A DNA stretch of 64,000 bases from Candidatus Woesearchaeota archaeon (GTDB lineage Archaea; Nanobdellota; Nanobdellia; Woesearchaeales; 21-14-0-10-32-9), in contig JAIPET010000001.1 in NCBI GenBank assembly GCA_021736975.1, positions 26,147 to 90,146 on the forward strand, written 5' to 3'. Position 1 is the first letter of the stretch, and every line of letters starts with the position of its first letter. Both the position numbers and the translations under genes were made by a program. The notes below the pieces were generated by a model. It saw only the letters and a program-made list of their open reading frames with translations. It searched no databases and had not been told where the DNA came from. Positions 293 through 43,057 of this stretch are shown one piece after another.

Positions 293-2392
293 ATGTCCGA
301 AGCTCCAGCAAAAAAAGATAAGTCAGTAATGGTACTTTCAAAAGTACATAGTGGCAGTAGGCAAACTGCTCTCACAGTAGATTATTCTACAGTTAATTAT
401 ACTAAATTAGAAACTATTTACAAAACCGATCAAATGCTTTTTCAAGCTGTCAACATCATCAGTAATTTTGCTATTTCTAAAGGGTATGAATTTATTATTG
501 ATGAGAATGTCAAAGAACAGATTGATCAAAGGGAAATCATATCTGACTTTGATTCAAAAGTAAATTTACCTAAACTTCTTACTGATGTTGTTAGACATTT
601 ACACATTTATGGTAATGCATATCTTGAGATTGTTTTCTCAAAAACTGAAAAAGATAAAGTTGTAGATCTTGTCTTAATTGATCCAAAAACTATCGAGTTT
701 AAGAAAACAGGTGCAGGAGAAATAGATCTTGATGATCAAGGCAAGATTAAAGGGTATGTTCAGAAAGTTGGAACTAAGACAATCGACTTAGATCCTGGTC
801 AAGTAATTCATTTCAGAATAAATACAATCGCTGATTCATTAACTGGTACTGGAATTATTGAGCCAGTCACTAAACTTATTGAAGCTAAAAGAAATATTGA
901 GCTAGGTCTTGCTGAATCCGTTTACAGACATGGCTTTCCTCAATTTCATGTTAAATTAGGAGATAAAGAACATCAACCAGAATCAGAACAGGTTGAAGAA
1001 GAAAGTGAGAAATATAAAAAGATTAATTCTAAATCTGAATTTGTTACGCCTTATTATTATGAGATTAAAGTTCTTGAAGCGCCATCTCTAAAAGGAGGAG
1101 AAGGTTATCTGAAATATTTTATTGATCAAATAGTTGCAGGTACTGGAGTTCCTAAAACTATTCTGCTTGGCACAGGAGAGAATACTAATAGAGCATCTTC
1201 TCAAACTGAGCAACAGAATTTCTTCTTATACATTGGAGGAATACAATCTCTCGTTTCTTCAGTATTAGAAAAAGAGTTATTTACAAAGATATTGAAAGTT
1301 GAAGAAAATACTGTTAGAATTCAATTTAATTCTTTACAATCAAAGACTGATCTTGAACTTGCACAAGAAAGGGAAATCTATCTGAAGTATGGAGTTGTTA
1401 CTCCTGATGAAGTCAGGCAAGAGATGGGCTTAGATCCTATTTCTTCACCCCCAAAAGAAAATAGCCAAGACATCTCTAATGTTTCATCAGGAGATTTTTT
1501 TAATTCAGATGACTTTTTAGGAAATGAAGATTTAATGATTGTGGAAGATGAAGATTTTAATGATGTCTTTATGCCTTATGCTCAGAAGTTTGCAGGATCT
1601 GATGCTAGTATCATGGAAGCACCGGGTGTTTTAGAAGTGTTAGGTCAACCAATTAAATCTAGATTTATCAAAGATGAACACATACTTATACATAGAGCTA
1701 ATAAGATCTTTGACAAGATAAGAAAGAAATTCTTAAAAGAGATTGATGGGAGATATGATATTAAAGATGATCTTGACAAACTCAAAGCTGAAGATATTAT
1801 TATTGATTCTGAACTACTTGCTCCTGAAAGAGATGCATTAGCAGCTGCAATATTTCTGGACTCTAAAAAGAAATTCAAACAAGGAATAAACTTGGGAGAG
1901 AAGTTTATCAAGAAAAATAATCCTGTTGTTGCAGGAATCAAGATTAAAAGTACAGTTCATGAGCCAGCACTTAAAGCATTAGATCTTTCTTCTTCTAAAC
2001 TTGCAGGTAAGGTTAGTGATGATTTGTTAAGGGAAACACAAAGAGTTCTACGTGAAGGTATTCAAGCAAGAAAAGGAGTAACTCAATTGAAAGAAGATAT
2101 TGAAACTGTATTTGAAAAGTTTGGAGGAACAAGTGGAAGATTCAATAAGATGGGAACTAGATCTGAATTAATTGCTAGAACTGAATTACAAAGATCTTTC
2201 ATTAATGGGAATATTCAAAGTTTCAAGGATCTAAAAGTTAAAACACTTAGAATGGTTACATTACCTGGTGCTTGTGAACAATGTTTAGAAGCTTCACCTG
2301 ATAATCAAGTAGTGCCGATTGATTTATCAGATGGAATTCTTCCAATTCATCCTAGATGCAGATGTGGCTGGTTTGCTAATAGTTTTAGTTAG
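293..2392 (+). CDS. phage portal protein fused to a Mu-gpF/SPP1-gp7-like head morphogenesis domain
   Basis: 699-aa ORF opening the structural module; the C-terminal ...HPRCRCGWF motif is typical of the Mu F family; too long for a portal alone. Confidence 0.45.
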   Translation: MSEAPAKKDKSVMVLSKVHSGSRQTALTVDYSTVNYTKLETIYKTDQMLFQAVNIISNFAISKGYEFIIDENVKEQIDQREIISDFDSKVNLPKLLTDVVRHLHIYGNAYLEIVFSKTEKDKVVDLVLIDPKTIEFKKTGAGEIDLDDQGKIKGYVQKVGTKTIDLDPGQVIHFRINTIADSLTGTGIIEPVTKLIEAKRNIELGLAESVYRHGFPQFHVKLGDKEHQPESEQVEEESEKYKKINSKSEFVTPYYYEIKVLEAPSLKGGEGYLKYFIDQIVAGTGVPKTILLGTGENTNRASSQTEQQNFFLYIGGIQSLVSSVLEKELFTKILKVEENTVRIQFNSLQSKTDLELAQEREIYLKYGVVTPDEVRQEMGLDPISSPPKENSQDISNVSSGDFFNSDDFLGNEDLMIVEDEDFNDVFMPYAQKFAGSDASIMEAPGVLEVLGQPIKSRFIKDEHILIHRANKIFDKIRKKFLKEIDGRYDIKDDLDKLKAEDIIIDSELLAPERDALAAAIFLDSKKKFKQGINLGEKFIKKNNPVVAGIKIKSTVHEPALKALDLSSSKLAGKVSDDLLRETQRVLREGIQARKGVTQLKEDIETVFEKFGGTSGRFNKMGTRSELIARTELQRSFINGNIQSFKDLKVKTLRMVTLPGACEQCLEASPDNQVVPIDLSDGILPIHPRCRCGWFANSFS

Positions 2393-2405: not shown

Positions 2406-3246
2406 TTGAAATATTTCTCTATGTTTTCTGGAGTGGGAGGATTTGAAATTGGGATCAAAAAAGCAATACCAAAAGCAAAATGTATCGGATTCTCAGAAGT
2501 TGATACATACTCAGTTCAAATATATCAAAAGCACTTTCCAAAGCACAAGAATTTTGGTGATGCAACAAAAATCAACCCAAAAGACATACCTAACTTTGAT
2601 TTATTATGTGCAGGATTTCCTTGTCAAGCATTCAGCATTGCTGGAAAAAGGAAAGGTTTCGAAGATTCAAGAGGCACTTTGTTTTTTGAGATTGAAAGAA
2701 TTCTTAAAAGCAAAAAACCTGATTATTTACTCCTCGAAAACGTTAAAGGCCTACTCAGTCACAAACAAGGGAAAACTTTTGCCTACATTTTACAACGGCT
2801 GGATGAATTGGGGTATTGTATTGAATGGATGGTTCTTAACAGCAAGGATTTCAAAGTTCCCCAAAACAGAGAAAGAGTGTACATTATTGGATATCATAGA
2901 GAAAAATCCAAAAGAAAAATATTACCTTACGGATCAAACATTGAAATATTTAATAAAGCGAATCCGAAAGGGTTGGAACTCCAATATGATGGAGATTATC
3001 AAAGCAAAAGAATCTATTCTATATCAGGAGTTGCTCCAACAATACCCACAAGCAAATCAGGAGGAAATCATATTCCGTTTATTTCAGAAATACATTAGAC
3101 GATTGACTCCATTAGAAACTGAACGAGCTCAAGGGTTTCCAGATAACTGGACAAAAGGAGTCTCTGAAACACAAAGATATTCTATGATGGGGAATGCAGT
3201 AACAGTTAATGTAATTAAAGAAATACTTTCTAAAATAAAAAAATAA
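2406..3246 (+). CDS. DNA (cytosine-5)-methyltransferase, interrupted by an apparent frameshift near 3070-3100
   Basis: Motif I FSGVGGF, motif IV GFPCQAFS and motif VI ENVKGL lie in the frame of 2406..3098; motifs IX/X IRRLTPLETERAQGFPDNW...GNAV continue in the overlapping +1 frame ORF 2443..3246. Confidence 0.8.
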
Positions 3247-3277
3247 AAGGTGTCTCAGCCCACTTAGCCTGACTATT

Positions 3278-3366
3278 CCGACAAACCGGCCATTATTGTT
3301 TAGATTATTGTTGCCGTTGAGACCGTTATAATTATTGTTAAGGAACAGGACACGGCCCCAAGAGTA
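3278..3366 (-). repeat. DGR template repeat (TR), non-coding
   Basis: About 89 bp homologous to the 3' ends of both target genes; every difference from the VRs falls where the TR has T on the + strand (A on the coding strand); TR codons in the VR frame are mostly AAT/AAC and a stop codon is present. Confidence 0.8.
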
Positions 3367-3561
3367 GCCATTTCACTTTCTGGAAAGCCACCACCACTTC
3401 ACACATTAGGTGTCGTGGTTGTATTTTATAACAGCTAGGCTGTCATAGTGAAACGACGTGTAGTTCCAAGCTACTTCATTGCTTTTAATAAAGCAGCTGA
3501 GACAAAGTAGTAAGAATATATCTTATATAAAAACGTTTTTGTTTTCAGATTCTTTGGATGA

Positions 3562-4464
3562 TTATTTTCGCGCGCTTGGCGCCTCCGGCGCTACCCCGAC
3601 AAACCGGCCACCACCGTATAGATTATCGTCGCCGCCGAGACCGCCATAATCACTGTACAGGAACAGGACACGGCCCTGAGGAGTACTAGCATCACGACCA
3701 CCAAAAGGATGATAACAACCTAAGGTATCATCAGACGTGTCTTTTGCTCTTTCAAAGTATTCTTCTAAATTTTGCATTCCTGCGTTTCTTGCCATCACTA
3801 AAGAATTTGCTAAAAACTCCCTTTTTTTAACATAAGTAGATTCAGTATTCTGAGCTACTGAGTAAGGCATTACAATTCCAAACTGATGAGGTAAATCAGA
3901 AACACCTTTTTTAATTTCATCATCAAAATGATATAATTTAATTCCAGAGCCATCAGGAAGTTTACCATCCAGTAAATCATCAAACTCTTGATTTGTATAT
4001 TTAGCACTACCACTTACTAATCCTTCATCATAAGCTTGTTTAATACGTTTAGGAGTTAGTATTCCTCCGCCATTAACTAAAACTAAGACTGGTTCATTAG
4101 CACCATAAAATCTTCCCTTTTGATCAATTCCGATGTTTTCTTCTGTGTGAACAGTAAGCCAATTTTTATAAAAATCATGATTCTTTCCAGCTTTAACTTT
4201 GGCTGCAATAAGTTCAGGCATTGTAGCAACATAACCAGTACTTCCAGCATGTTCTAAAGCTTGTTGCAAAGCATCAGCAAGATTGCCATCATAAAACATC
4301 TTGCCTTTTAATATATCATTAATATTAACCATGTTTTGAGGCATAGCAGGTTGAGTTCTATTTGGGTTATTAACAGGTTGCCTTAAAGGTATTTCTTGTC
4401 CAGGAATCCAACCAGTAGCTTGAATGAATTTCTCCAAATCTTTATCAGGAATTATTCGAGTCAT
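3562..4464 (-). CDS. DGR variable (target) protein 1 with C-terminal variable region
   Basis: 300 aa; paralog of 6465..7385 with identical N- and C-terminal ends (MTRIIPDKDLEKFIQATGWIPGQEIP...FVGVAPEAPSARK); VR lies at the 3' end. Confidence 0.75.
   Translation of the reverse strand: MTRIIPDKDLEKFIQATGWIPGQEIPLRQPVNNPNRTQPAMPQNMVNINDILKGKMFYDGNLADALQQALEHAGSTGYVATMPELIAAKVKAGKNHDFYKNWLTVHTEENIGIDQKGRFYGANEPVLVLVNGGGILTPKRIKQAYDEGLVSGSAKYTNQEFDDLLDGKLPDGSGIKLYHFDDEIKKGVSDLPHQFGIVMPYSVAQNTESTYVKKREFLANSLVMARNAGMQNLEEYFERAKDTSDDTLGCYHPFGGRDASTPQGRVLFLYSDYGGLGGDDNLYGGGRFVGVAPEAPSARK
3568..3597 (-). promoter_or_regulatory. GC-rich IMH-like element with hairpin (GCGCC-TCC-GGCGC) at the VR1 3' boundary
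   Basis: tcgcgcgcttggcgcctccggcgctacccc is identical at both VRs and absent from the TR (TR has tagcctgactattcc instead); contains a short palindromic stem. Confidence 0.5.
3596..3685 (-). repeat. DGR variable region VR1
   Basis: Aligns to TR 3278..3366; 14 substitutions at TR-adenine positions, one elsewhere, and one indel at the 5' edge. Confidence 0.75.
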
Positions 4465-6449
4465 TTTGAAAGTAACACCTCCAGTCCAGCCTGAAGCATT
4501 TTATCCTTATCGTGAACAGGATGATAAACAATGTTAGGATCATTTCTTACGGCATTTCCTAGATCATAAGTTCCACCAATTTCAAAAAGTACAACATGAT
4601 TATTAGGATTACTTGCTATTTCTTTCATTTTCTTGGCTTCTCTTTGTGTTCGACCATCAATAACTAAACTACCATCAGTTACAACAACATATGTTCTTTG
4701 CTGTCCATCACGATAATTTGTGATACTGATATCTTCTTCATCATAACCATTATTAGGCTTAAACAAAGCACCTAAAGGTCCTGTTTCTCCTTTCCAAAAT
4801 TGATCAACAGTTACAATATCTGAACTTACTTGAGAATTACCAAAATTATGAATTCTCATTTTTGTTTGTTTACCCACCTGCTTTTCTCCTTGATGTAAAG
4901 CATCAACAAAACCATACATGACATGACTTAACATATCCCATCTACTTCCGTCATTTACTTTATATCTGCCAGCAGTACCGCCAAACATACTTCCTGAACT
5001 GTCAAGATAAAACTCAACCATATCAGGAACATTCATATGAGCATCAACATAAACAATATCTTTAAGATCTCGCTCTTTTAATTCATACTCGTTAAGTCTA
5101 TAAGTGCTATTTCCTATATCCATAAGCCATGGCAAACGAGTTTTCTTTTGTAAAGTACTGATTCTTCCAAGATTTACTCTACTTAATTGGTCTTCGGTAA
5201 GGACAGTACTCTTCTTTAGATTCCAATATTCTTGTTTTCCAACTATAACACTCTCGCCAACTTTTTGACCTCCAAGAATTTGAACCTTAGGATGATTTCG
5301 TTTGTAAAATTCATGTGTAGCTAAAACATCAAGATTTTTCATCTCATCAGCACTAGAATCTTTACTGCCAGGTTTTTTATTATCAACATCTTGAGGAAGT
5401 TGCATCTGAGATGCAGCTTGTTGTAAATCACCATCACTTTCTTGAGCTAATCCTTGAACGAATTGTTGTTGTTCAACAGGCGTCATGTCATCTAATAAAT
5501 CTTGTAAAATATTTTGAGGTGAAGCACCGCTACCAGCACCTTGCATATCAGGTCTTCCTTGAGGCATTCCTTTCTGAACATAAGGACCTAATACAGCCAT
5601 AAAACGTTCAATACCTTTATATCTATCATCTCCAGAAAAAACCTCTCTAATATCACTAACATAGGCTTGAACACGCTCATAATTCTCTTGATCAGAACCA
5701 CTTCCAAATAAAGATTTAGCTCTATCGACTAACGAAGCTCCTTTTGATTTAGGTAAATCAACAGATTGACCAATTAAACTACCTAAAGCTTTCTCAGCAA
5801 CAGCAACTCCTTCTTTGCCAGATTTACCTTCAAAGAAGCCATGAGTGCTTGCAGGACCGTACATAACACCATACAAGAATCTTGTAACAGTATAAAAATT
5901 AGTTTCAGAAGGAGAATCTTGTAATTCTAACAAGTCCCAAGTAGGAATAATATCATCTCTAACATACTCTCCTTTTTTATTATCTAATGCGAAACGATTA
6001 TCTAAAATAAAATCTTTAACTCCATTTTGAGATGCTTGAACCTTAACTACTTGTTCAAGTGGACTAAGATTTGGTTCAGCTTTTACAACACCACGTCTAA
6101 TGGATTGGTGGATTAATTTGTTATCATTATTTTCTCCTTCAACACTAAAAGGAGCTTCAATAGGATGATAAAGTTCATGATGTAATAAGTAATGTAAAGT
6201 CTCTTTTGCTAATTCTTCAGGAGTTCCATCCCAATACTTAGCAACAACATCTTCAAACTTTTGAGCTAAATTATTATCTTGAGAAATTTCTGCATAAATT
6301 CTTTTAAGATCAGTTGAAAATGTCCAGTCACGACCATTTTGTGCAACTCTTCGAATAACAGGAGTATCACTACGTAAAGGAAAGTCTCTCCTGACGTCAT
6401 CACGCCAGTCACGTTCAGCTTCATTAAGAAGCAATTGCATATCTTTCAT
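4461..6449 (-). CDS. VWA-domain (MIDAS) protein with N-terminal HExxH metallopeptidase-like motif
   Basis: DSSGSM MIDAS motif followed by DG/VVTDG stretches in the C-terminal third; HHELYH near the N-terminus; lies between the two DGR targets in one operon. Confidence 0.5.
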   Translation of the reverse strand: MKDMQLLLNEAERDWRDDVRRDFPLRSDTPVIRRVAQNGRDWTFSTDLKRIYAEISQDNNLAQKFEDVVAKYWDGTPEELAKETLHYLLHHELYHPIEAPFSVEGENNDNKLIHQSIRRGVVKAEPNLSPLEQVVKVQASQNGVKDFILDNRFALDNKKGEYVRDDIIPTWDLLELQDSPSETNFYTVTRFLYGVMYGPASTHGFFEGKSGKEGVAVAEKALGSLIGQSVDLPKSKGASLVDRAKSLFGSGSDQENYERVQAYVSDIREVFSGDDRYKGIERFMAVLGPYVQKGMPQGRPDMQGAGSGASPQNILQDLLDDMTPVEQQQFVQGLAQESDGDLQQAASQMQLPQDVDNKKPGSKDSSADEMKNLDVLATHEFYKRNHPKVQILGGQKVGESVIVGKQEYWNLKKSTVLTEDQLSRVNLGRISTLQKKTRLPWLMDIGNSTYRLNEYELKERDLKDIVYVDAHMNVPDMVEFYLDSSGSMFGGTAGRYKVNDGSRWDMLSHVMYGFVDALHQGEKQVGKQTKMRIHNFGNSQVSSDIVTVDQFWKGETGPLGALFKPNNGYDEEDISITNYRDGQQRTYVVVTDGSLVIDGRTQREAKKMKEIASNPNNHVVLFEIGGTYDLGNAVRNDPNIVYHPVHDKDKMLQAGLEVLLSK

Positions 6450-6464
6450 TGTTTGATACCTTCT

Positions 6465-7385
6465 CTATTTTCGCGCGCTTGGCGCCTCCGGCGCTACCCC
6501 GACAAACCGGCCATAATTGTTAAGATAATTGGCGCCGCTGAGACCGAAATAACTATAGTTAAGGAACAGGACACGGCCCTGAGGAGTACTAGCATCACGA
6601 CCACCAAAAGGATGATAACAACCTAAATCACCATCACTTGCTTTTGCCATTTCATAATATGATTCTAAATTCTCAAGTCCTCCTGCTCGAGCAATAACTA
6701 AAGGATTTTTCATAAAATCTTTCTTTTGATGATAACCTGATTTAGTTCCTTGAGCTATAGAATAAGGCATAACAACACCAAACCTATGAGGTAAACCAGA
6801 AACACCATCTTTTATTTGTTCAAAAGAAAACAATTCAATCTGAGAACCATCAGCTAATTTACCATCTAACAGATTATCAAACTCTTGATTTTCATATCTC
6901 GCACTATTGCTAATTAAACCCTCACCATAGGCTTTCATAATTCTATCAGGTGTAAGTATTCCTCCACCATTAACAACTACTAAAACAGGCTCATTTGCAG
7001 AATAAAACCTACCTTTTTGATCAATTCCGATGTTTTCTTCAGTATGAACTGCATACCATTTTTGCCAAAAATCATGACTTTTTTCTGCTTTTAATTTAGC
7101 AGAAATAAGTTCGGGCATTGTGGCAACATAACCATCAGTTCCAACATAATCTAAAGCTTCACCTAAAGCAACTGCTAAACCAATATAATTACCATCTTTC
7201 TTTTTTTCACTAAAAAAAGTCTTTCCCTTCAAGATATCATCAATATTAACGATACTTTGAGAAGTAATGGGTTGTGTTCTATTTGGGTTATTAACAGGTT
7301 GTCTTACAGGTATTTCTTGTCCAGGAATCCAACCAGTAGCTTGAATGAATTTCTCCAAATCTTTATCAGGAATTATTCGAGTCAT
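6465..7385 (-). CDS. DGR variable (target) protein 2 with C-terminal variable region
   Basis: 306 aa paralog of 3562..4464; the C-terminal 30 residues differ only at VR positions. Confidence 0.75.
   Translation of the reverse strand: MTRIIPDKDLEKFIQATGWIPGQEIPVRQPVNNPNRTQPITSQSIVNIDDILKGKTFFSEKKKDGNYIGLAVALGEALDYVGTDGYVATMPELISAKLKAEKSHDFWQKWYAVHTEENIGIDQKGRFYSANEPVLVVVNGGGILTPDRIMKAYGEGLISNSARYENQEFDNLLDGKLADGSQIELFSFEQIKDGVSGLPHRFGVVMPYSIAQGTKSGYHQKKDFMKNPLVIARAGGLENLESYYEMAKASDGDLGCYHPFGGRDASTPQGRVLFLNYSYFGLSGANYLNNYGRFVGVAPEAPSARK
6471..6500 (-). promoter_or_regulatory. GC-rich IMH-like element, second copy
   Basis: Identical 30-mer to 3568..3597, immediately 3' of VR2. Confidence 0.5.
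6499..6588 (-). repeat. DGR variable region VR2
   Basis: Aligns to the TR; differences (T to A, G or C on the + strand) occur only at TR T positions. Confidence 0.75.
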
Positions 7386-7390
7386 TTTAT

Positions 7391-8980
7391 CTACCTCACA
7401 ATAGAACCTAACCTGTGCTCATAGATACTGCTTTGTCCTTTTTTAGATTGATAGATTTCTCCAAAAGCTTTTATTGCTTCAGGTCCTCTTTCTTTTAGAG
7501 CAGAAGAAATATCTCCCTCATATGACCTACTAAAATGATCAAGCACTACAAGGTCAGCTAACACTCTTGATCTCATTGTTGCTTGAGCTGCACTTGTTGC
7601 TTGAGTATTAAGTTGAGACATATTATGTTGTAAGAAATTAAGATATTCCTTAAATCCATGTTCTTGACCAACTTTAATGGCTCCTTGCCATGCAGCTTGT
7701 CTTAATCCATAACCTTCAGGAATTCCAGCACCCTTATGCATATCAGCATAAGCTGATCTAGCATCATTTACAAGAGCCATTAAACTACCATAATCAGTAC
7801 CTGTAATTGTCTTACTTTCTAAAATTACTCCAATTCCTGCAGTAACATCATTTAAACCAACAGATGCATCATACGAACCATCTTTTACTCCTTTAATAAA
7901 TCCAAGAAGTCGTGATAAATCTCTGATTTTTCTAAGATCACGTCTAACAAATCCGTGCTTTAATTTACCTTGTGCATCAAGAATCTTTCTATAATTATTA
8001 TCATCTCTAACTGAAAAGTTTGGAGTAACACCTGCTTGTTGTAGTAATTCAATATTTCTTTCAAATGTTTGTTTAGGATCATAACCTACATACCCAAGAG
8101 CTGCATCAATAAATTCTCTTGTTTGACCGTCAAGTTGAGATGGGAACTGCTCAGGGTCTGTTATAACTGGATAAACTTCTTTCCAGCTTCCTTTTACACC
8201 TGAACGTTTAGCAAATTCACTCCAAAACTGTTCGTGTAAATCTCCTGCTAATGTTTTTTCTAACTGACTTGAACCTGCTTCTGCAACTCCATTAGGAAAT
8301 TTGAATTTTAAGAATCTGTTTTCTCCTGCGATATCAAGGTCAAGTGCAGCACTATGTTCTGCATCCGCAGGGTTCATAGCAGCTAAGATAGCAAGTCCTT
8401 TGTAACTACCATCTTTTCCAGGAATAGGAAGCCTTAAGTAACCAGTATCTCCATTGACGTGTACTACGCCATCAACTACTTGAAATACTTCTTGACTATC
8501 TCCTCTGTTAATTTCATCAATAAATAATGCTCCGTATTTAGAACATTTTTCTTGGTCAATCCTTGTTTTTGGTACTCCATTCTCTAAAGTGGTTTTAGTA
8601 AAAGGTTCAAGAGCTGAACTGCCTAAAACTCCTCCACTTAGTCTAAGAGTGTAATGCCCATCAGGACCGAATACTGCATTGAATAAGGCATCACTCGTGT
8701 ACGTTTTTCCAACACCCGTTACACCTTCATAGAGTACGTGAAAATCATCAAAAAACATGGATGCAGTATCAATATCGAGTACTGTTACTTCGGTTGAATT
8801 TGGAGAAGGTAATCTTCCTTTTCCATTTAAAAATTTCACATCAACATTATCTCCTTCTGTAATCTCCATATAAGGCGTTGGAGATACAACGCCATCAAGT
8901 GTGTCATACAAAGTTTGAACGAAATGTTTTCTCATTTCCTTATGATCTTTTTTTTCAGTTGCCATTTTGTACTTCTCCAT
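7391..8980 (-). CDS. AAA+ ATPase, MoxR-like
   Basis: Walker A GVTGVGKT, Walker B ALFIDEINRGD; 529 aa; upstream in the same operon as the VWA protein and the DGR targets. Confidence 0.6.
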   Translation of the reverse strand: MEKYKMATEKKDHKEMRKHFVQTLYDTLDGVVSPTPYMEITEGDNVDVKFLNGKGRLPSPNSTEVTVLDIDTASMFFDDFHVLYEGVTGVGKTYTSDALFNAVFGPDGHYTLRLSGGVLGSSALEPFTKTTLENGVPKTRIDQEKCSKYGALFIDEINRGDSQEVFQVVDGVVHVNGDTGYLRLPIPGKDGSYKGLAILAAMNPADAEHSAALDLDIAGENRFLKFKFPNGVAEAGSSQLEKTLAGDLHEQFWSEFAKRSGVKGSWKEVYPVITDPEQFPSQLDGQTREFIDAALGYVGYDPKQTFERNIELLQQAGVTPNFSVRDDNNYRKILDAQGKLKHGFVRRDLRKIRDLSRLLGFIKGVKDGSYDASVGLNDVTAGIGVILESKTITGTDYGSLMALVNDARSAYADMHKGAGIPEGYGLRQAAWQGAIKVGQEHGFKEYLNFLQHNMSQLNTQATSAAQATMRSRVLADLVVLDHFSRSYEGDISSALKERGPEAIKAFGEIYQSKKGQSSIYEHRLGSIVR

Positions 8981-9281
8981 CTAGAATTTTTATTTTAATT
9001 TCAACAAGCGTTTTAGGTCTAAGTTTATCTCTTAGGAATGCAGGAATAATGATTATATTCTGAGCTCCTTGCTTGCTGATTTGTTTTGTTAGTGTAAATT
9101 CATTCATTATACATTCACCATATAAACCACATAATATTTACATGTTGTTACTATGTAGTAAGCACAACTACTATTTAAATCTTTCTATATTTAGTCACTT
9201 ATAAGTAGTCCTTATTTGCTTTAGTACTCTGTTATTTATAAAGAAATAGGTAATTCTTTAAAAAGTTCTCCAACATAAACA

Positions 9282-9476
9282 TTACTCTGTTATGGGGAAT
9301 TTTTCAATAATTATGAACTCTTTATCGCCTGATCTGACTGCACTAACTTGTACTTTACTGCCGCTCTTTAAACCAATAGCTTTAGCTTCACGAGTGACCA
9401 AAACTCCAATTCCATTCCCGTAAGTATTCAACTGTTTTACAGATCTTTCGATGATTTCTTTTTTTGAATCAGTCAT
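9282..9476 (-). CDS. AbrB/MazE-like swapped-hairpin DNA-binding protein
   Basis: 64 aa from the internal Met (MTDSKKEI...); NGIGVLVTREAKAIGLKSGSKVQV resembles an AbrB/SpoVT domain; divergent from the RT. Confidence 0.45.
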   Translation of the reverse strand: MTDSKKEIIERSVKQLNTYGNGIGVLVTREAKAIGLKSGSKVQVSAVRSGDKEFIIIEKFPITE

Positions 9477-9486
9477 ATATTGTATA

Positions 9487-9579
9487 ATACTGTATATAAC
9501 TAATAAACACAGTATTATACTGTATATTACATATCCTTTGAACAACGTTAATAAATAAATGTAAGATACTGTATATTAC
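9487..9579. promoter_or_regulatory. three direct repeats ATACTGTATATWAC in the AbrB/RT divergent promoter region
   Basis: Copies at 9487-9500, 9517-9530 and 9565-9579, the last abutting the RT ATG; a partial inverted copy lies at 9508-9520. Confidence 0.5.
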
Positions 9580-9580
9580 T

Positions 9581-11254
9581 ATGGGTGATAAAAAAGACAT
9601 TCTTGTAGAAATATATGATGAAGTTTGTTCATATGAAAATTTAGAGCTAGCATTTCAAAGAGCCAGAAGGGGAAAAACACTAAAGCAGTATGTGATTGAT
9701 TTTGAAAAAGATTTAAAGGAAAATTTATTACAATTAAGATCGGAACTTCTTTTACATACATACGAACCAAGACCATTAAAAACATTCATTCTACGAGATC
9801 CAAAAACAAGAAAAATTAGTAAATCTGCATTTAGAGACAGAGTCATTCATCATGCAATATGTAACGTTATAGAACCTGTTTTTGATAAGCGATTTGTTCA
9901 TGATTCGTTTGCTAATAGAATTGGTAAAGGAACTCTTAATGCGATAAAACGATTTGATGTTTTCAAGAGAAAAGTATCTAAGAATAATACTATAAAATGT
10001 TATGTTCTTAAAGCAGATATTAAAAGTTATTTTGATACAGTTGATCATGAGATTTTAATAAAACTTCTATGTAAAAGAATTCATGATGGGAGATTAATGT
10101 GGCTAATTAGAATTATATTAAATAATCATCAAGGAAAAGTATCGAGTAAGGGGATGCCTTTAGGAAATCTAACATCTCAATTCTTTGCTAACGTGTATCT
10201 TAATGAGCTTGATCAATATGTTAAACAAAAACTGCGAGCAAAATATTATATAAGATATGTAGATGATTTTGTAATCCTACATCAATCTAGAATTCAATTA
10301 GAAGAGTATAAGGAAAAGATAGACCAGTTTCTCAAAGAAAAATTAGAACTAAAATTACATCCATTTAAATCTCAAATTATAAAATTAGAAAAGGGAATTC
10401 CTTTTTTAGGAATCAGAGTTTTTTATCATCACAAACTTCTTGTGAAAAAGAATATGAGAAAATTTGAGAAAAAAATGGAAGTTATGAAAAAAGATTACCA
10501 ATTGGAAAAAATAGAACGTGAAAAAGTAATAGAAAAATATGAGGGATGGATTGCCTATGCATCACATGCTAACACATACAAATATAGAAAACGGATGACT
10601 AGTAAATTAAACCATTCTTTCCCTGCTCAATCTGAAGTAAAAATTACTGCAGTAAAAAAACATGAGAATTTTCATAAAAAAGTAGATTTAAGTAAAATTG
10701 ACTTTACCCAACAAAAAACTCTACAATTAATTAATAGAGGAGTATCTATTGATAACATCGCTAAACAAAGAAACTTAAAGATTGGAACTGTTTGGGATCA
10801 TATCGCAAATCTAGTGGAATATCATCAAGTACCTCTTAAAAAAGTAATAACAACAAAGAAAGTTCATAAAATATTGTATGCAATAAAATCTCCAGAAGAT
10901 AAACTCAAAGATATCAAACAAAGAATAAATGATGAATCAATAAGTTATAATGAAATTCAAGTAGTACTTGCAAATGTAAAATCAAAGCATAAGAAAAAAA
11001 GTATTTCATATTATGTTGAATGGTATCAAAGAACAAACTGCTTTAGGAAATGCTATTACAATAAAGATCAAAGAAAAGAATGTCGAGTTAAATTTCAGCA
11101 ATTAGTAGCAAAAGGATTGAATATGGAGTTCTCAAAACATGATTTTCTGGATTTTTTTCATAATCATGTGAATATCTGTGTTCTACCTGAGAAAGATAAA
11201 AAAAGATTTATGTCTTGGGATGAATTTAAGAAATCAATTAAAAAGAAGCATTGA
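9581..11254 (+). CDS. DGR reverse transcriptase with about 180-aa C-terminal extension
   Basis: RT motifs: FDTVDH, GMPLGNLTSQFFANVYLNELD (DGR-type ...GxxxSQ) and YIRYVDDFVIL (YxDD); the extension carries an HTH-like segment and a Cys cluster. Confidence 0.85.
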   Translation: MGDKKDILVEIYDEVCSYENLELAFQRARRGKTLKQYVIDFEKDLKENLLQLRSELLLHTYEPRPLKTFILRDPKTRKISKSAFRDRVIHHAICNVIEPVFDKRFVHDSFANRIGKGTLNAIKRFDVFKRKVSKNNTIKCYVLKADIKSYFDTVDHEILIKLLCKRIHDGRLMWLIRIILNNHQGKVSSKGMPLGNLTSQFFANVYLNELDQYVKQKLRAKYYIRYVDDFVILHQSRIQLEEYKEKIDQFLKEKLELKLHPFKSQIIKLEKGIPFLGIRVFYHHKLLVKKNMRKFEKKMEVMKKDYQLEKIEREKVIEKYEGWIAYASHANTYKYRKRMTSKLNHSFPAQSEVKITAVKKHENFHKKVDLSKIDFTQQKTLQLINRGVSIDNIAKQRNLKIGTVWDHIANLVEYHQVPLKKVITTKKVHKILYAIKSPEDKLKDIKQRINDESISYNEIQVVLANVKSKHKKKSISYYVEWYQRTNCFRKCYYNKDQRKECRVKFQQLVAKGLNMEFSKHDFLDFFHNHVNICVLPEKDKKRFMSWDEFKKSIKKKH

Positions 11255-11312
11255 TTTGATACAAATTTAATAATCAATTATGATGGTAAATTAATTTAAC
11301 TCTTGAAATAAA

Positions 11313-20775: not shown

Positions 20776-23700
20776 ATGGCTGAATCAGTACGGATCAAAT
20801 TTACAGGAGAAGATAAGGTCTCACCTACTGTCTCCAGGATTAATTCAAGTTTAGGTAGTCTTGGCTCTAAAATATCATCTGTTGGGAAGTCTTTTAACAA
20901 AGTCAATAAGGCACTAGTTCTCGGCTTTACTGCAATCACGGGTGCCGTTGTAGCACTTGGGGTTAAAGCCATAAAGAGTTTTGGAGAGTTTGATAGGCAA
21001 ATTAAAAGAGTTCAAGTTCTGGCAGGTGGAACAGAAGAAGATTTTAAGAGTTTAATGGACACAGCGTTCAGACTTGGTTCTAGCACAGCTTTTTCTGCAC
21101 AAGAAGTTGCGGAAGCATTTGAAGAATTTGCTAAAGCTGGTTTTTCTGTGAATCAAATTCTAAAAGCATCTGAATCAACATTGGGTTTAGCAACTGCGGG
21201 TAATATTAATCTTGCTGAAGCAGTTAATATTTCTGTTGCCGCTCTAAATGCATTTGGTAGAGAAGCAGATGATATGAATGGAGTAGCAACTATCTTAACA
21301 ACTTCATTTACTAATTCTGCTCAAACACTCGAAGATCTTGGTCAAGCATTAAAGTTCGTTGCTCCATTAGCTTCTAGTTTAGGGATTAGTTTAGAAGAGG
21401 TTAGTGCAGCTCTTGGAACTCTAGCAAATGTTGGTTTAAAGGGAAGTATTGCAGGAACTTCATTAAATCAGGCGATGTTACAATTGCTTAATCCAACAAC
21501 TAAATCTGCAGAAGTAATGGAAGATCTTGGCGTACAATTCTTTTCACTTGATGAGGCAGGTCAAGCGGCGAGTGCAACTATTAGAGCAACAAAAGACGAA
21601 TTTAATTTACTAAGAGATCGAGTAAGAGAGAGTGATATTGAAGTTGCTAATTTGGGATCTCAACTTGCAGAAGCAAAAAGAGAATTAAGTGGTCTTGCTA
21701 AAGATGCAGGTGGATTTGAAGGATTATCATCAGGTCTTACTGCGTTACAAAATAGTTTCGATGATGCTAGACTGAAAAATAAAGAATTAAGAGATGCTCT
21801 TGATGCACAAGAATCAACTTTTGAAGGATTAAGAAAACAAGTCCAGGAAGGATCTCAAGAGTTTATAGGGTTAAGAGATACAGCTAAACAACTTAATGAT
21901 GCTTTCAATGAAGTGGATGCATCAAGAATCCAAAGGGCAATGGCATTGGTTCAAATCTTCAAAGTTAGAGGTGCAAGATCATTTTTAACACTTACAAAAG
22001 AAATAGAAGAGTTTGACAGGTTATTCAATACAATAGCCGCAACTGAAATAAGAACAGAACTCCTCGATGAAGCAAGTTTAAGAAAAGCACTTGATGCACA
22101 AGATAGTTTTGCCTCTGCATTTGGGATTACATTTGAGAAACTTGTAGCAGATGCAACAAAAGTTCCAGAAGGATTAGACAAAGCATTAACTGATGCAAAA
22201 CTAGACGAAAGAGCTAGAGATATATTTAGAAATCTTAGAGATGAAGTAACAAATCTTGGACTAGATAGTGAATCTGTTGAAGCAGTATTATCTGATTTTT
22301 TACCATTAGATGCTGTAAAAGATTTTAGAAAAATAATTCAACTTACTGATCAAGATTTTGAAAGTTTTTTAGCTAATATTAATGCAACAAATCAAGATGC
22401 TCAAACATTAAACAAGACACTCCTAAATAATTTAGGATCTGCTTTAGAAGAATTACAAGATACAGTAACAACTACTTTTATCAGAATTGGCGGGGCAATT
22501 GCAGAAAGATTAGATCTTACAAATGTAGTGAGAAATATTCAGCAAGCAATAGAAGATTTCTCTACAGGTGGAGGAGTTGAAGCATTAGCAGACAAACTTG
22601 TAAATGTGTTCAAAACTATTGGGAATTTCTTTAAAGGAATTAAAACAGGTTTTTCTCAAGTATTTACGCCTGAAATAATTGATAATCTAAAGAACGCATT
22701 TGTAAGAAACTTTGGAATAATTCAAAACGAAGCAGGTAATCTTGGAGTAGTCTTTGGAAGAATACTTGGGAGCATGGTTAAAGGGGGGGCTGAACTTATA
22801 ACTAGAGTATTAAATTCAGACATTATAGAAAATGCTAGTAAGGCATTTAAGAGAATTGGAAGTGTCCTTGAAAAATTAGGTCCTACTATTGGTGCAGTTG
22901 CTACTGGCTTTGTTTTACTATCTCCCATTTTAGGTCCTTTATTCTACATTGGTGGAAAATTAGCGAGTATATTTGGATTCTTAATATCATCAGTTATTGG
23001 ATCAGGAAAAGCAATCTCTGGACTGATTGGTGGAACAGGGAAACTTGGAGGATCTTTTGGAGGTATTATTGGAAAGATCACAGGGGTAGGTGCAACTGCA
23101 ACAAAGACAACAGCTGGAACTGCAGGACTTCTTGGAAAACTTGGAGGTCTTGGATCTTCAATAAGTGGAGTATTCTCTGCTATAGGGTCTGCTTTAGGTG
23201 TAAGTGCAGGTGTAGCGGCTGGCATTGTAGTCGCTGTGATTGGAACAGTTATCGGATTTATTAATCAAGTGAGACAGAATTTCTTAGGACTAGGGGATGA
23301 TTTTAAAACAATTTTCGGAGCTATATGGACAGTTCTCAAAGCTGTTGGGTCTGCATTAAAAGAAAACCTTATCGATATTGGTGGACTGCTTAAACCAATT
23401 TGGGAAGGTATCAAAGACACTTTCAATGGACTTGGCAAGATCTTAGGTGCATTGGTAGCCTCAGTTATTCATCCTTTTGCAGAAGGACTTAGAAGATCTG
23501 GAGATGAGGGGCTTAAAGCTGGAGAGATAATCAAAGGTGCAGTTACTCTTATGCTTGCTCCATTAAGAATTGCATTAACTATTCTTGGAAGTTTACTAAA
23601 AGCAGTTGGAGCAATAATTAATTTTGTAGCCACAATCATTGCAGGTATTGTTGAACTTGGCTTTGCTTTCCAAGACGCATTTAGGAGATTTAAAACAGAG

Positions 23701-24960
23701 GGATTTTCTGCATTTAAAGGAGTTGGAGAAGTAGCTAAAAAGATTGGAATATCTATTCTTAAATCATTCATAGGTGCAATTGATTCAATCATAAATATAT
23801 TCATAGATCTAATTAATGAAGTCGTAAATATAGCGAAAAAGATTCCTTTACTTAACAAAGTAATTGATAAAAATTTCAAAATAGATAAAAATGTGCTTGG
23901 TAATCTTTTAGGATTCAGTAAAGAAGCTGAGAAGACAGTTGACAAAATTAAAGAAACACAAGATGTCTTAACGGAAGCACCAACAGCAATACCTGGCATT
24001 CAAGCAACTCAATCATTTTTACCAGGAATAAATGAAGGAAATACTGCTGGTTTAGGATTCTCAAGTTCAGCAATTGAAGCAATGTCTACAAACAGTGATG
24101 CTATTACAGCTTCGGCAGTAGATCCATTTAAAGAAGCAAGTATCCAAGCATCAGACTTTGGATTCACTTCTATGGAAAATTACTCTGCTCCGTTTAGAGA
24201 TCCTGATGCAATATCTTCAATAAAATCAGATATTATGTCAGTATTTCCAAGTCCTGAACAAGCATCTCAACAAGGGAGAGAGTTTGGTAAATTCTTCTTT
24301 ACAGGTTTGGCTAGTGGGATGCAGGAATTATCTGGAATCTTTCAACAAAATATTTTACCTATTTTTACAACTATGAATGAAGCATTGAAAACATTTATTT
24401 CAGCTTTCTTGAGAAACTTGTTTGTGCTAAAATCAGTTCCACCATTCTTCTTGAAATTAGCAACAAACATTTACAGAATATTTGTTGGTGGATGGCAATC
24501 TACATTCAACATGATTGCAGACATTACAGAAACTGTAGTCAATAGTATGCAGAATAATCTAGAAATATTTTATAATAATCTAGTATCAATAATTAACAGA
24601 TTAATTTCTGAATATAATCGAGCTGCAGAGATATTAGCCAGAGACATTACTAGAACTCATAAAAGCACAAGATCATATACTGACAGTAAAGGAAGATCAA
24701 GAACTAAAACCACTTACAGAACTGAGACTCTCTACAAAGGAGTCAACATTCCAAAACTTGCCCAATTCTCTAATGTTAAACTGGATAAGCTTCAGCTAGA
24801 GAGAGCTATAATACCTCAGTCTCCTGTAACTGTAGATGCTGGCGGATTCAATGTCAATATAGAGAATCTTAACACTTCAAGTGAAACTGACAAACAGAGA
24901 TTATTCTCAGAAATTGATGCGTTTATTGCTAATAAACTTGGAGGTTTAGTAAGATTATGA
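20776..24960 (+). CDS. tail tape measure protein
   Basis: 1394 aa; N-terminal alpha-helical region, central Gly-rich hydrophobic stretch, canonical position. Confidence 0.8.
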   Translation: MAESVRIKFTGEDKVSPTVSRINSSLGSLGSKISSVGKSFNKVNKALVLGFTAITGAVVALGVKAIKSFGEFDRQIKRVQVLAGGTEEDFKSLMDTAFRLGSSTAFSAQEVAEAFEEFAKAGFSVNQILKASESTLGLATAGNINLAEAVNISVAALNAFGREADDMNGVATILTTSFTNSAQTLEDLGQALKFVAPLASSLGISLEEVSAALGTLANVGLKGSIAGTSLNQAMLQLLNPTTKSAEVMEDLGVQFFSLDEAGQAASATIRATKDEFNLLRDRVRESDIEVANLGSQLAEAKRELSGLAKDAGGFEGLSSGLTALQNSFDDARLKNKELRDALDAQESTFEGLRKQVQEGSQEFIGLRDTAKQLNDAFNEVDASRIQRAMALVQIFKVRGARSFLTLTKEIEEFDRLFNTIAATEIRTELLDEASLRKALDAQDSFASAFGITFEKLVADATKVPEGLDKALTDAKLDERARDIFRNLRDEVTNLGLDSESVEAVLSDFLPLDAVKDFRKIIQLTDQDFESFLANINATNQDAQTLNKTLLNNLGSALEELQDTVTTTFIRIGGAIAERLDLTNVVRNIQQAIEDFSTGGGVEALADKLVNVFKTIGNFFKGIKTGFSQVFTPEIIDNLKNAFVRNFGIIQNEAGNLGVVFGRILGSMVKGGAELITRVLNSDIIENASKAFKRIGSVLEKLGPTIGAVATGFVLLSPILGPLFYIGGKLASIFGFLISSVIGSGKAISGLIGGTGKLGGSFGGIIGKITGVGATATKTTAGTAGLLGKLGGLGSSISGVFSAIGSALGVSAGVAAGIVVAVIGTVIGFINQVRQNFLGLGDDFKTIFGAIWTVLKAVGSALKENLIDIGGLLKPIWEGIKDTFNGLGKILGALVASVIHPFAEGLRRSGDEGLKAGEIIKGAVTLMLAPLRIALTILGSLLKAVGAIINFVATIIAGIVELGFAFQDAFRRFKTEGFSAFKGVGEVAKKIGISILKSFIGAIDSIINIFIDLINEVVNIAKKIPLLNKVIDKNFKIDKNVLGNLLGFSKEAEKTVDKIKETQDVLTEAPTAIPGIQATQSFLPGINEGNTAGLGFSSSAIEAMSTNSDAITASAVDPFKEASIQASDFGFTSMENYSAPFRDPDAISSIKSDIMSVFPSPEQASQQGREFGKFFFTGLASGMQELSGIFQQNILPIFTTMNEALKTFISAFLRNLFVLKSVPPFFLKLATNIYRIFVGGWQSTFNMIADITETVVNSMQNNLEIFYNNLVSIINRLISEYNRAAEILARDITRTHKSTRSYTDSKGRSRTKTTYRTETLYKGVNIPKLAQFSNVKLDKLQLERAIIPQSPVTVDAGGFNVNIENLNTSSETDKQRLFSEIDAFIANKLGGLVRL

Positions 24961-42172: not shown

Positions 42173-43057
42173 TTAGTCAACCATTTTCTTTACATTGTGT
42201 TTCATAAAGATCTGATTTTGCATCATTGCTATGGCTTCTTCTTCTGCAATGTTTTCTTTTGGTTTAGTGCTTGCTTCTGATTGTGGTGTGATTACAATCT
42301 TCACTAGGTTTGTGAGTTCTGCAATTTGATCTTTAAGACTACTAATCTCTTTGTTGTGCTTTTCTTCTGTCGAATTAAATACGCTATTGACTATGTCTCG
42401 TTTTGCTTTCATGCTTGTTTTGATATATCGTTCAGTTGACCTAAGATTCTTATGCCTTCCACAGATTTGTGCGGCGAATACACCTCTTGAATCACAGATC
42501 TTCTGCAGATAATAATGTCTTAATGTATGATAACTTAGAACCGATAGTTTATGTCCTGTTGCAGATGTGCTATATTTGTGATCAAGCCCAGCTGCTTTTC
42601 TGAACCTTATAGTTCTTGATCTAATTGTTCCAGGACTAAGATGTTTTTCACCAGTGTATGAATACCTTCCAGAACTAGGTGGTCTTCCACACCTCGACAT
42701 GCGACCGTATTTCATCCTCCAAAAGATGTAATTATCAGAAAGAAGTATTTGCTGTTTGTAAGTTAAGATATGATTCTTTAATCTCTCGATCATAAAGTCA
42801 GGAATGATTATCTTTTCTCCTTTCTCTTTGTTTTTTTGTTCAGGGAGGATTAAAGTTTTTTCAACAAAATCTATGTGATCAACTTTTATGCTACAAGTCT
42901 CAATGCTTCTTAATCCTAGTTCACTAGCACAGTAATATATGTTCTCCCAAAACATAACATAGTCTGAATCATACCTTGATTCCACATCTCTTACTGCTTG
43001 CATAAATATATTGAATTGTGCTTCAGTAATTGATTTTTGTTTTGCTTCTTGTGCCAT
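42173..43057 (-). CDS. int: tyrosine recombinase / integrase (paralog 1)
   Basis: LRSIETC (Arg), HTLRHYY (H-x-x-R), RSTERY (Tyr) catalytic residues. Confidence 0.75.
   Translation of the reverse strand: MAQEAKQKSITEAQFNIFMQAVRDVESRYDSDYVMFWENIYYCASELGLRSIETCSIKVDHIDFVEKTLILPEQKNKEKGEKIIIPDFMIERLKNHILTYKQQILLSDNYIFWRMKYGRMSRCGRPPSSGRYSYTGEKHLSPGTIRSRTIRFRKAAGLDHKYSTSATGHKLSVLSYHTLRHYYLQKICDSRGVFAAQICGRHKNLRSTERYIKTSMKAKRDIVNSVFNSTEEKHNKEISSLKDQIAELTNLVKIVITPQSEASTKPKENIAEEEAIAMMQNQIFMKHNVKKMVD

Follow-up and report, generated by a model that had tools for sequence, protein, structure and literature searches.

A diversity-generating retroelement of the DPANN AvpA type in a putative woesearchaeal provirus, with an RT-16 RNA beside its template repeat and its reverse transcriptase on the opposite strand

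The window analysed here, 64,000 nucleotides of contig JAIPET010000001.1 of a Candidatus Woesearchaeota archaeon (assembly GCA_021736975.1), very probably contains a genuine, complete and recently active diversity-generating retroelement (DGR) that belongs to the DPANN lineage of AvpA type, lacks the accessory protein Avd and lies in a head-tailed provirus. A single template repeat (TR) lies near two target genes that end in variable repeats (VR1 and VR2), and the reverse transcriptase (RT) is encoded about 6 kb away on the other strand. The first-pass annotation, made from the sequence letters, had described just such an arrangement, and it held on every point that we tested. All coordinates are those of the whole window, and the bases of the TR and VRs are read on the minus strand, which is the coding strand of the targets. 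The principal parts of the element, including the sequences at the ends of the repeats that correspond to mutagenic homing initiation (IMH in the VRs, IMH* in the TR), are as follows.

3273..3358, minus strand: TR, 86 nt; its A-rich variable part, at about 3340..3293, has 11 AAY codons
3291..3273, minus strand: IMH* GGCCGGTTTGTCGGAATAG, the 3′ end of the TR
3562..4464, minus strand: target gene 1, 300 aa, AvpA-like C-type-lectin family (PDB 5ioo, AvpA, E 3e-9)
3591..3676, minus strand: VR1, in target gene 1, with IMH GGCCGGTTTGTCGGGGTAG at 3609..3591 and hairpin GCGCC-GGA-GGCGC at 3591..3579
6465..7385, minus strand: target gene 2, 306 aa, paralogue of target 1, with VR2 at 6579..6494 and hairpin at 6494..6482
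9581..11254, plus strand: DGR reverse transcriptase, 557 aa, with RVT_1 at residues 75-280 and HTH_40 at 376-463 (Pfam) and a Cys-rich tail

A repeat search of the window found a family of three 86-nt copies, at 3273-3358, 3591-3676 and 6494-6579; the first-pass annotation had the same number of copies, at positions that were 5–9 nt off. Tabulating the mismatches by TR base, the check that the annotation had suggested, revealed a pronounced bias to adenine: VR1 differs from the TR at 16 of 27 A positions and 1 of 59 others (Fisher p=2e-9), and VR2 at 12 of 27 A positions and 0 of 59 others (p=1e-7). The earlier statement that substitutions occur exclusively at adenines is therefore accurate for VR2 and has one exception in VR1, a T-to-G change that is synonymous (CTT to CTG), while the count of at least 14 substitutions per VR fits VR1 (16 at A) and not VR2 (12). 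As originally described, the TR is intergenic and non-coding, carries a stop codon in the VR frame (TGA at 3375-3373, directly upstream of the core) and is rich in AAY codons. In the target frame, its adenines fall 11 times at codon position 1, 12 times at position 2 and once at position 3, and the 11 AAY codons would permit ~15^11 = 9e12 variants per target.

VR1 and VR2 form the 3′ ends of the two paralogous open reading frames (ORFs). Both terminate in the IMH, followed by the GC hairpin with its trinucleotide loop, and the 32-nt string of IMH plus hairpin, which is identical in the two VRs, occurs at exactly 2 sites in the 64 kb, where 0 are expected by chance. The TR has GGAATAG and no GC hairpin behind it. 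For comparison, one genome per species was scanned with an RT alignment, giving 80 related loci, in 57 of which TR/VR sets were identified by a self-BLAST scan for A bias; among the locus labels used below, L001, L002 and L003 refer to the same IMG/VR virus contig, UViG_3300037424_003016. Every VR examined (window, L003, L007, L008 and L014) has GGGGTAG, whereas each TR has GGAATAG. Since the two A's of GGAAUAG are GG in all examined VRs, they are not transferred, and cDNA transfer stops just 5′ of them. The A-bias scan detected no second RT or TR elsewhere in the window, and the IMH pattern had only its two sites. Four residues upstream of the VR core, within DA[S/V/G]TPQ, a codon (3687-3689 and 6590-6592 in the window, with equivalents in L003) reads AGT, GTT or GGT depending on the copy and the genome; this variable codon is outside the TR homology and not at TR adenines.

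Comparison of related genomes provides evidence of activity. The TR of L003 differs from that of the window by one C-to-T change at a non-A site, and both L003 VRs have T where both window VRs have C. The TR of L008, a cellular Nanoarchaeota locus, has 8 differences from the window TR, and all three L008 VRs follow it at the 7 that are non-A. Since changes at non-A sites of the TR are mirrored in the VRs of the same genome, TR-to-VR copying took place after these lineages split. Differences between the window and L003 fall at TR-A sites in 13 of 16 cases for VR1 and 13 of 14 for VR2, and the 90%-identity cluster of target 1, with four members from four sources, has its differences densest in the VR. 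As read from these sequences, the genomes diverged very recently, and concerted copying from TR to VR, with adenine mutagenesis, followed. Two VR changes, TAT to TAG in L003 and CTT to CTG in window VR1 (position 3340), are both T to G at non-A sites, with the changed T immediately 5′ of a mutated AA, which hints at RT error when extending from misincorporated adenines.

No catalytic motif is missing from the RT ORF, which is intact and shares 97% identity with that of a relative. It bears GMPLGNLTSQFFANVY and YVDD, with the DGR-type LGNLTSQ in place of QGxxSP. Its closest solved relative is the Bordetella phage RT, bRT (PDB 8ub7, E 1.5e-45), in which IGSLTSQ aligns to LGNLTSQ, and a group II RT comes next among the PDB matches (1e-26). 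The protein falls below every NCBIfam cut-off, scoring 171 bits against a cut-off of 300 for the group II model TIGR04416 and lying far below the cut-offs of Drt2, Drt3a and Drt5, and an Rfam scan of the 64-kb window matched RT-16 RNA (described below) and no group II intron, retron or msr/msd RNA. We therefore rejected a group II intron or retron identity, and the assignment to the DGR type made in the first-pass annotation was borne out by the comparison with bRT that it had recommended. Homologues number 6680 at E<=1e-20; the best 120 of these all combine RVT_1 with HTH_40, and the named sources among those 120 are all archaeal metagenome-assembled genomes (MAGs), nearly all of them Woesearchaeota or Nanoarchaeota. 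In the tail beyond HTH_40 (10988-11254, residues 470-557), C487, C491 and C501 are invariant and C533 is near-invariant in 32 homologues, a conservation that suggests a zinc-binding module. The long form of the RT is found in about a quarter of related loci, the RTs of the others being ~350 aa.

How unusual is the arrangement? The 80 RT loci all come from MAGs labelled archaea, most of them DPANN and a dozen 'uncultured Methanosarcinales', which we take to be a binning label; the RT family appears limited to DPANN archaea. They include L056, Nanoarchaeota SCGC AAA011-G17, which was among the cells of the first archaeal DGR description (Paul et al., 2015, PMC4372165). In 48 of the 57 TR-bearing genome loci, VR, TR and RT follow one another on a single strand, and ~50 nt separate the end of the TR from the RT's start codon; L056 and most relatives have the order VR - RT-16 - TR - RT on one strand and an RT of ~350 aa. 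In the other 9, TR and RT occupy opposite strands, divergent or convergent: the TR of L014, L016 and L020 is far upstream with the targets between, an arrangement shared by the window, L003, L007 and L008, and that of L013, L017, L026, L027, L028 and L071 comes directly after the RT's stop codon. Altogether, 12 loci with A-biased VRs have an opposite-strand layout. A third orientation variant occurs in L025 and L061, where the TR is on the RT's strand and the VR-bearing targets are on the opposite one. In L063 the cassette is collinear, all of it on one strand in the order ATPase - target - vWA - target - TR - RT, and an inversion of the RT gene would turn this type into the layout of the window. 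TR and RT on different strands, multi-target DGRs and unrelated nested ORFs have already been described (Wu et al., 2018, PMC5758913). Thus, the features that the first-pass annotation called non-canonical, one TR serving two targets and an RT that is distant and divergent, are correct as description and not as novelty.

The element is a DPANN-archaeal DGR (Nanoarchaeota/Woesearchaeota, AvpA-type) of the kind reported by Paul et al. (2015) and Handa et al. (2016, PMC5006420) and not an oddity. It shares with the Nanoarchaeota (DUSEL4)/DPANN AvpA DGRs (PMC4372165, PMC5006420, 5ioo) the RT family, the target family, an IMH-encoded RFxGV, the trinucleotide-loop GC hairpin inside the ORF tail and RT-16 5′ of the TR, and the potential repertoires are comparable (11 AAY codons in this element, 12 variable residues for AvpA). 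It differs in its apparent location in a head-tailed provirus, in the inversion of the RT gene 6 kb from the TR, in the 200-aa HTH_40 and Cys-rich extension of the RT and in the interleaving of the targets with genes for a MoxR-like ATPase and an HExxH-vWA protein.

The region around the TR has further features, all on the minus strand, that bear on how the template RNA may be made and used.

3359..3502, minus strand: Rfam RF03019 'RT-16 RNA', 84.1 bits against a gathering score of 50, matching the full-length model (positions 1-158)
3504..3491, minus strand: 5′ arm (A) of P1, the first hairpin of RT-16, GUCUCAGCU
3473..3466, minus strand: 3′ arm (A′) of P1, UAGCUUGG
3463..3457, minus strand: conserved CUACACG of RT-16
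3252..3272, minus strand: TR 3′ flank UCAGGCUAAGUGGGCUGAGAC, complementary to both P1 arms of RT-16
3232..3249, minus strand: T-run CUUUUAUUUUUUUAUUUU, at which the template RNA is proposed to end, overlapping a methylase gene's stop codon on the other strand
3524..3533, minus strand: TATA-like box TTTTTATATA, starting ~28 nt upstream of the RNA's 5′ arm; the proposed archaeal promoter

RT-16 directly adjoins the 5′ end of the TR, its last base being the one before the repeat. When 26 loci (~470 kb) were scanned with Rfam, RT-16 reached the gathering score in 24, always directly adjoining the 5′ end of the TR and sharing its strand, whatever the orientation of the RT, and it was found nowhere else in the ~470 kb. 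Of 61 TR-bearing loci, 50 have CUACACG at a distance of 100-230 nt upstream of the TR, and the RT-16/TR spacer is near-invariant between the window and L003, while the cassette averages ~5% divergence. The motifs RT-1 to RT-19 were defined only as motifs near RT genes; RT-10 was tied to the Bordetella phage spacer, and a DGR role was speculated for other RT motifs (Weinberg et al., 2017, PMC5737381). In the literature that we searched, no later functional assignment of RT-16 was found. Since RT-16 adjoins the TR on the same strand in 24 of 26 loci, RT-16 and TR make up one unit, and this previously orphan motif appears, from its genomic association, to be the structured half of the DPANN DGR template RNA. 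The 'Avd-like' small ORFs that Paul et al. (2015) placed between RT and target may coincide with the RT-16 region (L056 9568-9768).

The flank on the 3′ side of the TR can pair with the first hairpin of RT-16 in two parts, its first part (F1, UCAGGCUA) with A′ and its second (F2, GGGCUGAGAC) with A. L007, with 5′ arm GUCCCAGU and flank ACUGGGAC, has two double-sided compensatory changes, and a G.U pair is A-U in L003. We compared own-locus and cross-locus duplex energies in 38 loci, using 10000 permutations. The z-scores were -10.8 for A′:F1, -7.3 for A:F2 and -8.7 for A:A′, the Rfam hairpin, with the observed value reached in 0 of 10000 permutations for each, while the swapped-partner controls were flat (A′:F2, z=+0.4; A:F1, z=-0.9). 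With own-locus pairing ahead of cross-locus pairing in 10000/10000 permutations and the swapped controls null, we rejected the idea that the flank complementarity is a mere motif common to all loci. The three pairings are mutually exclusive, opposing a hairpin state to a state with a closing duplex of ~20 bp, and their covariation suggests a structural switch. In the closing duplex, CUACACG faces GGAAUAG at the TR's 3′ end. Folding prediction for 3522..3247 gave a z-score of -2.9, with a centroid that retains the outer long-range helix, P1 and the RT-16 core, keeping only the outer 6 bp of the closing helix together with P1.

Signals that might delimit this RNA recur in related loci. The TATA-like box is invariant in an alignment of the 4 closest loci, and one starts 26-29 nt upstream of the arm in ~15 related loci; T-runs come after the flank in every opposite-strand locus listed in the flank comparison and in L003, L007 and L008. 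A scan for sigma-70 promoters and intrinsic terminators around the TR detected nothing, using bacterial models, whereas the organism uses archaeal signals. From these signals we infer a discrete template RNA of ~270 nt, consisting of RT-16, the TR and the 21-nt flank, that would be made independently of the RT mRNA. The Bordetella phage DGR depends on RNA at either side of its TR: the priming adenosine is presented by a TR:spacer duplex, and cDNA synthesis is stopped by a duplex that TR-upstream and TR-downstream sequences form; such duplexes were predicted in 207 DGRs including those of Nanoarchaeota, considering 40 nt upstream of the TR only (Handa et al., bioRxiv 10.1101/2023.10.23.563531). 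By analogy, we propose that the DPANN flank pairings may be the counterpart of the Bordetella TR-flanking RNA elements, with priming and stopping both possible. In the mechanism that we envision, RT made from the other strand would bind the template RNA in trans, in keeping with the 9 of 57 genome loci whose TR is opposite the RT, and the two arms of RT-16's first hairpin would have alternative partners, each other or the 3′ flank. By this switch, cDNA synthesis primed by the RNA itself would be set up at the TR's 3′ end, on the model of Bordetella phage's template:primer and up/downstream duplexes, and the adenine-mutagenised cDNA would then replace the VRs.

What is being diversified? A phmmer search of the PDB aligned target 1 with 5ioo_A in two stretches covering residues 53-295 (E 3e-9), and the IMH encodes RFVGV in the targets, corresponding to the RFxGV motif of AvpA (Handa et al., 2016). 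Neither target had a match in Pfam, PHROGs or NCBIfam. Judged by this sequence similarity, the targets are AvpA homologues of C-type-lectin type. The first ~40 residues of the two targets (MTRIIPDKDLEKFIQATGWIPGQEIP.RQPVNNPNRTQP) are nearly identical, with 89% identity at the DNA level (4293-4467 and 7214-7388), while the remainder of the genes has 71-76% DNA identity; the near-identical N terminus may be a docking segment or a product of gene conversion.

Between the targets and the RT, and between the two targets themselves, lie the following features.

4461..6449, minus strand: HExxH-vWA protein, 662 aa; N-terminal helical domain with HExxH, C-terminal vWA with metal ion-dependent adhesion site (MIDAS) DSSGS...TD
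7391..8980, minus strand: MoxR-like AAA+ ATPase, 529 aa; Walker A GVTGVGKT, Walker B FIDEINRG, AAMNP
8955..9107, minus strand: 50-aa ORF at the head of the minus-strand operon; tblastn-conserved in L003, L012, L014 and L061
9282..9476, minus strand: 64-aa ORF; mechanically called as an 87-aa ORF starting at 9545, with 9476 the most likely start
9472..9530, no strand assigned: AT-rich inverted/direct repeats ATATACAGTATWATAC between the 64-aa ORF and the RT; 27-nt arms, 81% complementary

The ATPase probably starts at 8965, giving the 524 aa called in its relatives. Its AlphaFold2 model (pLDDT 88) has 2r44, NorQ and CbbQ, all of the MoxR family, as top Foldseek matches, together with MCM. In the family of the 662-aa protein, H90, E91 and H94 are invariant, D482-S486 are near-invariant and T590 and D591 are invariant, and the C-terminal 200 residues (pLDDT 87) match BatB, the Rea1 MIDAS domain and the LapA vWFA domain in Foldseek. 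Pfam, PHROGs and NCBIfam gave no match to either protein, and phmmer against the PDB gave nothing meaningful. As the motifs and folds are present while the family HMMs are silent, these would be divergent members of their families. The families of the two proteins comprise ~120 clusters each, with named members almost exclusively from DPANN archaea, and the pair occurs in 5 related loci: L003, L008, L012 (ATPase only, on the stretch covered), L014 and L063. The two lectins would act together with this co-operonic ATPase and HExxH-vWA protein.

The 50-aa gene is found in five loci; the 64-aa gene is restricted to the three viral cassettes and does not occur in cellular ones. The first-pass annotation had placed an AbrB-like gene, the 64-aa ORF, in the position of Avd. 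This assignment found no support: neither small ORF has a significant Pfam match, phmmer found nothing meaningful in the PDB for the 64-aa protein, and hhalign gave probabilities of 0.1% for the 64-aa and 3.6% for the 50-aa protein against AbrB, SpoVT, MazE and Abh sequences, a comparison that leaves the label unsupported rather than disproved. Since it is limited to viral cassettes, the 64-aa gene is not a general substitute for Avd, and the 50-aa ORF is likewise not a general replacement. It is possible that the AT-rich repeats at 9472-9530 contain the operator and promoters of the divergent region.

The surroundings of the element indicate how it may have travelled. It forms part of a module with sharply defined limits.

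3239..11247, no strand assigned: whole cassette as a shared module, 94.7% identical to UViG_3300037424_003016 (L002 3656-11666; blastn, mismatch profile)

The cassette lies between a portal gene (293..2392) and head and tail genes that include a head-protease-like gene and a tape-measure gene (20776..24960), among others, and in L003 and L007 it has the same placement, with annotated capsid genes downstream. From its gene content, the window looks like a provirus in an archaeal chromosome, with the cassette in the morphogenesis module of a head-tailed provirus. Inside 3239-11247 identity to L003 is ~95%, and beyond these limits it does not exceed 74%, where alignment is possible at all; the portal genes of the window and L002 are 74% identical over only 1.4 kb, and other genes are unalignable at the DNA level. 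The borders fall sharply at the T-run of the template RNA and at the RT stop codon. The 8-kb unit was thus probably exchanged recently between otherwise diverged viruses. In L008, a version with 72-85% protein identity is found in a purely cellular neighbourhood. A megablast search of 3000-11500 against 50,697 phage records returned no match.

Just outside the cassette is a gene for a C-5 cytosine DNA methylase (2406-3246, plus strand) that is split over two frames, with a frameshift near 3080-3095. ORF 2406..3098 has the N-terminal motifs FSGVGG, PCQ, ENV and QNRERV, and ORF 2443..3246 the C-terminal motifs RRLTPxE..QGFPDNW and GNAVTV; the split gene is a pseudogene, an assembly error or a case of programmed shift. 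The methylase gene is absent from L003. The right half of the window (34000-64000) looks cellular or mosaic, with type I restriction-modification genes (HsdM, 37163..39187; HsdS, 36067..37161), an Orc1/Cdc6-like ATPase (39461..40516), tyrosine recombinases (42173..43057, 44351..45349 and 61038..61853), an 800-aa fusion of PfkB kinase and AdoHcy hydrolase (45667..48069), a queuosine salvage protein and an SSF transporter. A DPANN archaeon or a virus of one is indicated by the RT, ATPase, vWA and AvpA families alike, by the Orc1/Cdc6 gene and by the putative TATA-type promoters.

Could these sequences be explained without a working DGR? One possibility is that the repeats are the ends of ordinary paralogous genes together with a decayed pseudogene fragment, shaped by gene conversion, and that the RT belongs to an unrelated retroelement (group II, retron or defence). 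The targets are paralogues with long shared stretches, and group II and Drt models are among the sub-threshold NCBIfam matches of the RT, as would suit this explanation. However, it is very improbable given the bias of mismatches to one base (p ~1e-9 and 1e-7), the AAY codon design of the TR, an RT that is nearest bRT while falling under all NCBIfam cut-offs, the absence of group II or retron RNA from the window and the presence of the same RT family beside an RT-16 and TR unit in dozens of loci. Somewhat less far-fetched, if still improbable, is that the DGR died recently when a rearrangement parted the RT from the TR, leaving the VR differences as fossils. An RT and TR that are 6 kb apart on opposite strands, the lack of Avd and the nonsense codon in VR1 of L003 could all be read in this way, but 12 loci with A-biased VRs share the opposite-strand layout, the RT ORF retains its catalytic motifs and its 97% identity to a relative, and the RT-16/TR spacer has stayed near-invariant in a cassette that is ~5% diverged. 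Moreover, a TR point change is mirrored in both L003 VRs, and copying therefore postdates the split of the 95%-identical cassettes.

Several points weigh against our preferred reading of a complete, recently active DGR with its own template RNA and partner proteins. The evidence for activity is a comparison between genomes rather than between reads and concerns copying since those lineages split. Damage to at least one of the lineage's target copies is evident, since VR1 of L003 has a TAT-to-TAG nonsense change (L003 ~4050) that cuts target 1 to 272 aa. Among the ORFs of 3239-11300, no match to Avd or another accessory family (HRDC, MSL or CH1) was found in Pfam, NCBIfam or PHROGs; accessory genes are not universal in DGRs, since Architecture A, to which a sizeable minority of DGRs belong (the text of Wu et al., 2018, gives both 29% and 75/372), is without any. 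The ATPase and vWA assignments derive from motifs and predicted folds with modest TM-scores. In addition, ATPase-vWA operons with no RT within 9 kb exist (L091 9001-16661; L093 9001-15222). Since the pair also occurs without an RT, it would be a partner of the target proteins and not retroelement machinery, and the ATPase-vWA system is either older than its coupling to the DGR or exists without one. The L091 and L093 operons include several proteins of 180-320 aa that are not AvpA-like by tblastn.

The template RNA model has weaknesses of its own. The promoter, terminator and RNA ends are read from AT-rich sequence in which TATA-like and T-rich strings are common, the mutually exclusive complementarities fit either state, and the priming site is a guess. 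It is possible, although on balance doubtful, that the complementarity of RT-16 and the flank is real and does not gate priming, serving instead as a terminator or stability element, a cDNA stop ('cPRT Stop'-like) or a processing signal, in which case another site would be used for priming. The duplex of sequences up- and downstream of the Bordetella TR has been assigned to cDNA termination (Handa et al., bioRxiv 10.1101/2023.10.23.563531), a T-run follows the flank, and the centroid fold keeps only the outer 6 bp alongside P1. Yet a simple terminator hairpin would not need locus-specific pairing with both P1 arms, and the single-stranded, invariant CUACACG and GGAAUAG come face to face at the 3′ end of the TR, which is where cDNA starts in the known system.

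Known systems offer partial parallels. Like the element described here, the DGR of Bordetella phage BPP-1 (mtd-avd-TR-brt) uses A-specific mutagenic homing, distinguishes IMH from IMH*, has a GC hairpin after the IMH, a target with C-type-lectin fold and an RT with I/LGxxxSQ, and has TR-flanking RNA pairing across the TR, which it requires. The archaeal element differs in having no Avd, two targets, putative archaeal promoter and terminator signals and, as proposed, a TR RNA that is not co-transcribed with the RT; RT-16, its large structured RNA, precedes the TR on the 5′ side, where avd would lie, rather than forming a 3′ spacer (RT-10), and its 3′ flank is only ~21 nt. MoxR-vWA systems with DGR-diversified lectin (CLec/FGS) domains have been described in cyanobacteria and proteobacteria (Kaur et al., 2020, PMC7159879; Dore et al., 2024, PMC10907252), while DGRs of clade 5F, from DPANN and the candidate phyla radiation (CPR), were stated not to be associated with such domains (Dore et al., 2024). 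As in these bacterial 'VMAP ternary' systems, a MoxR-type ATPase, a vWA/MIDAS protein and a DGR-diversified lectin-fold protein occur here in one cluster. Unlike in those systems, the lectin is a separate small protein rather than fused to vWA, the vWA protein has HExxH and the pair is also found without a DGR. We rejected membership in the VMAP ternary conflict systems, as the cassette, with all ORFs of at least 50 aa accounted for, has no VMAP or recognisable effector protein. Retron noncoding RNAs (msr-msd, with a1/a2 repeats) provide an analogy only: there too a structured RNA lies 5′ of the templated segment, the RNA ends pair to close the molecule and a 5′-proximal nucleotide is brought next to the 3′ end of the template. 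Here, however, the RT is of the DGR clade, the product replaces a gene segment instead of accumulating as msDNA, and no msr/msd family was found.

Taken as one more well-preserved and evidently active DGR in a family already catalogued for DPANN archaea, the headline finding is confirmatory. What is new is that RT-16 is tied to the TR, that alternative pairings covary, that the template RNA shows signs of being autonomous, that the targets have cryptic MoxR-vWA partners and that an otherwise diverged virus shares the 8-kb cassette at ~95% identity. Tentatively, we suggest that these fit together as follows. The DPANN template would be an autonomous small-RNA gene that can lie at any place and on either strand with respect to the RT; toggling between the hairpin and the 20-bp duplex would let a nucleotide of CUACACG self-prime without Avd; the HTH_40 and Cys-rich tail of the RT would take over Avd's role in holding the RNA; the stand-alone lectins would act with the MoxR-vWA machine; and the cassettes would be traded between DPANN cells and tailed viruses.

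RT-16 can be interpreted as the structured half of the DPANN DGR's template RNA, lying 5′ of the TR whereas the Bordetella phage spacer lies on the other side, and the three exclusive, covarying pairings give a concrete, testable model of how priming could be set up in a DGR without Avd. The opposite-strand layout, together with promoter- and terminator-like signals of its own, argues that template RNA and RT are separable modules, which would be useful for engineering DGR-based mutagenesis. Finally, the tie between AvpA lectins and a MoxR-like ATPase and HExxH-vWA protein that profile libraries had missed may offer a first handle on the role of these lectins in DPANN archaea and their viruses.

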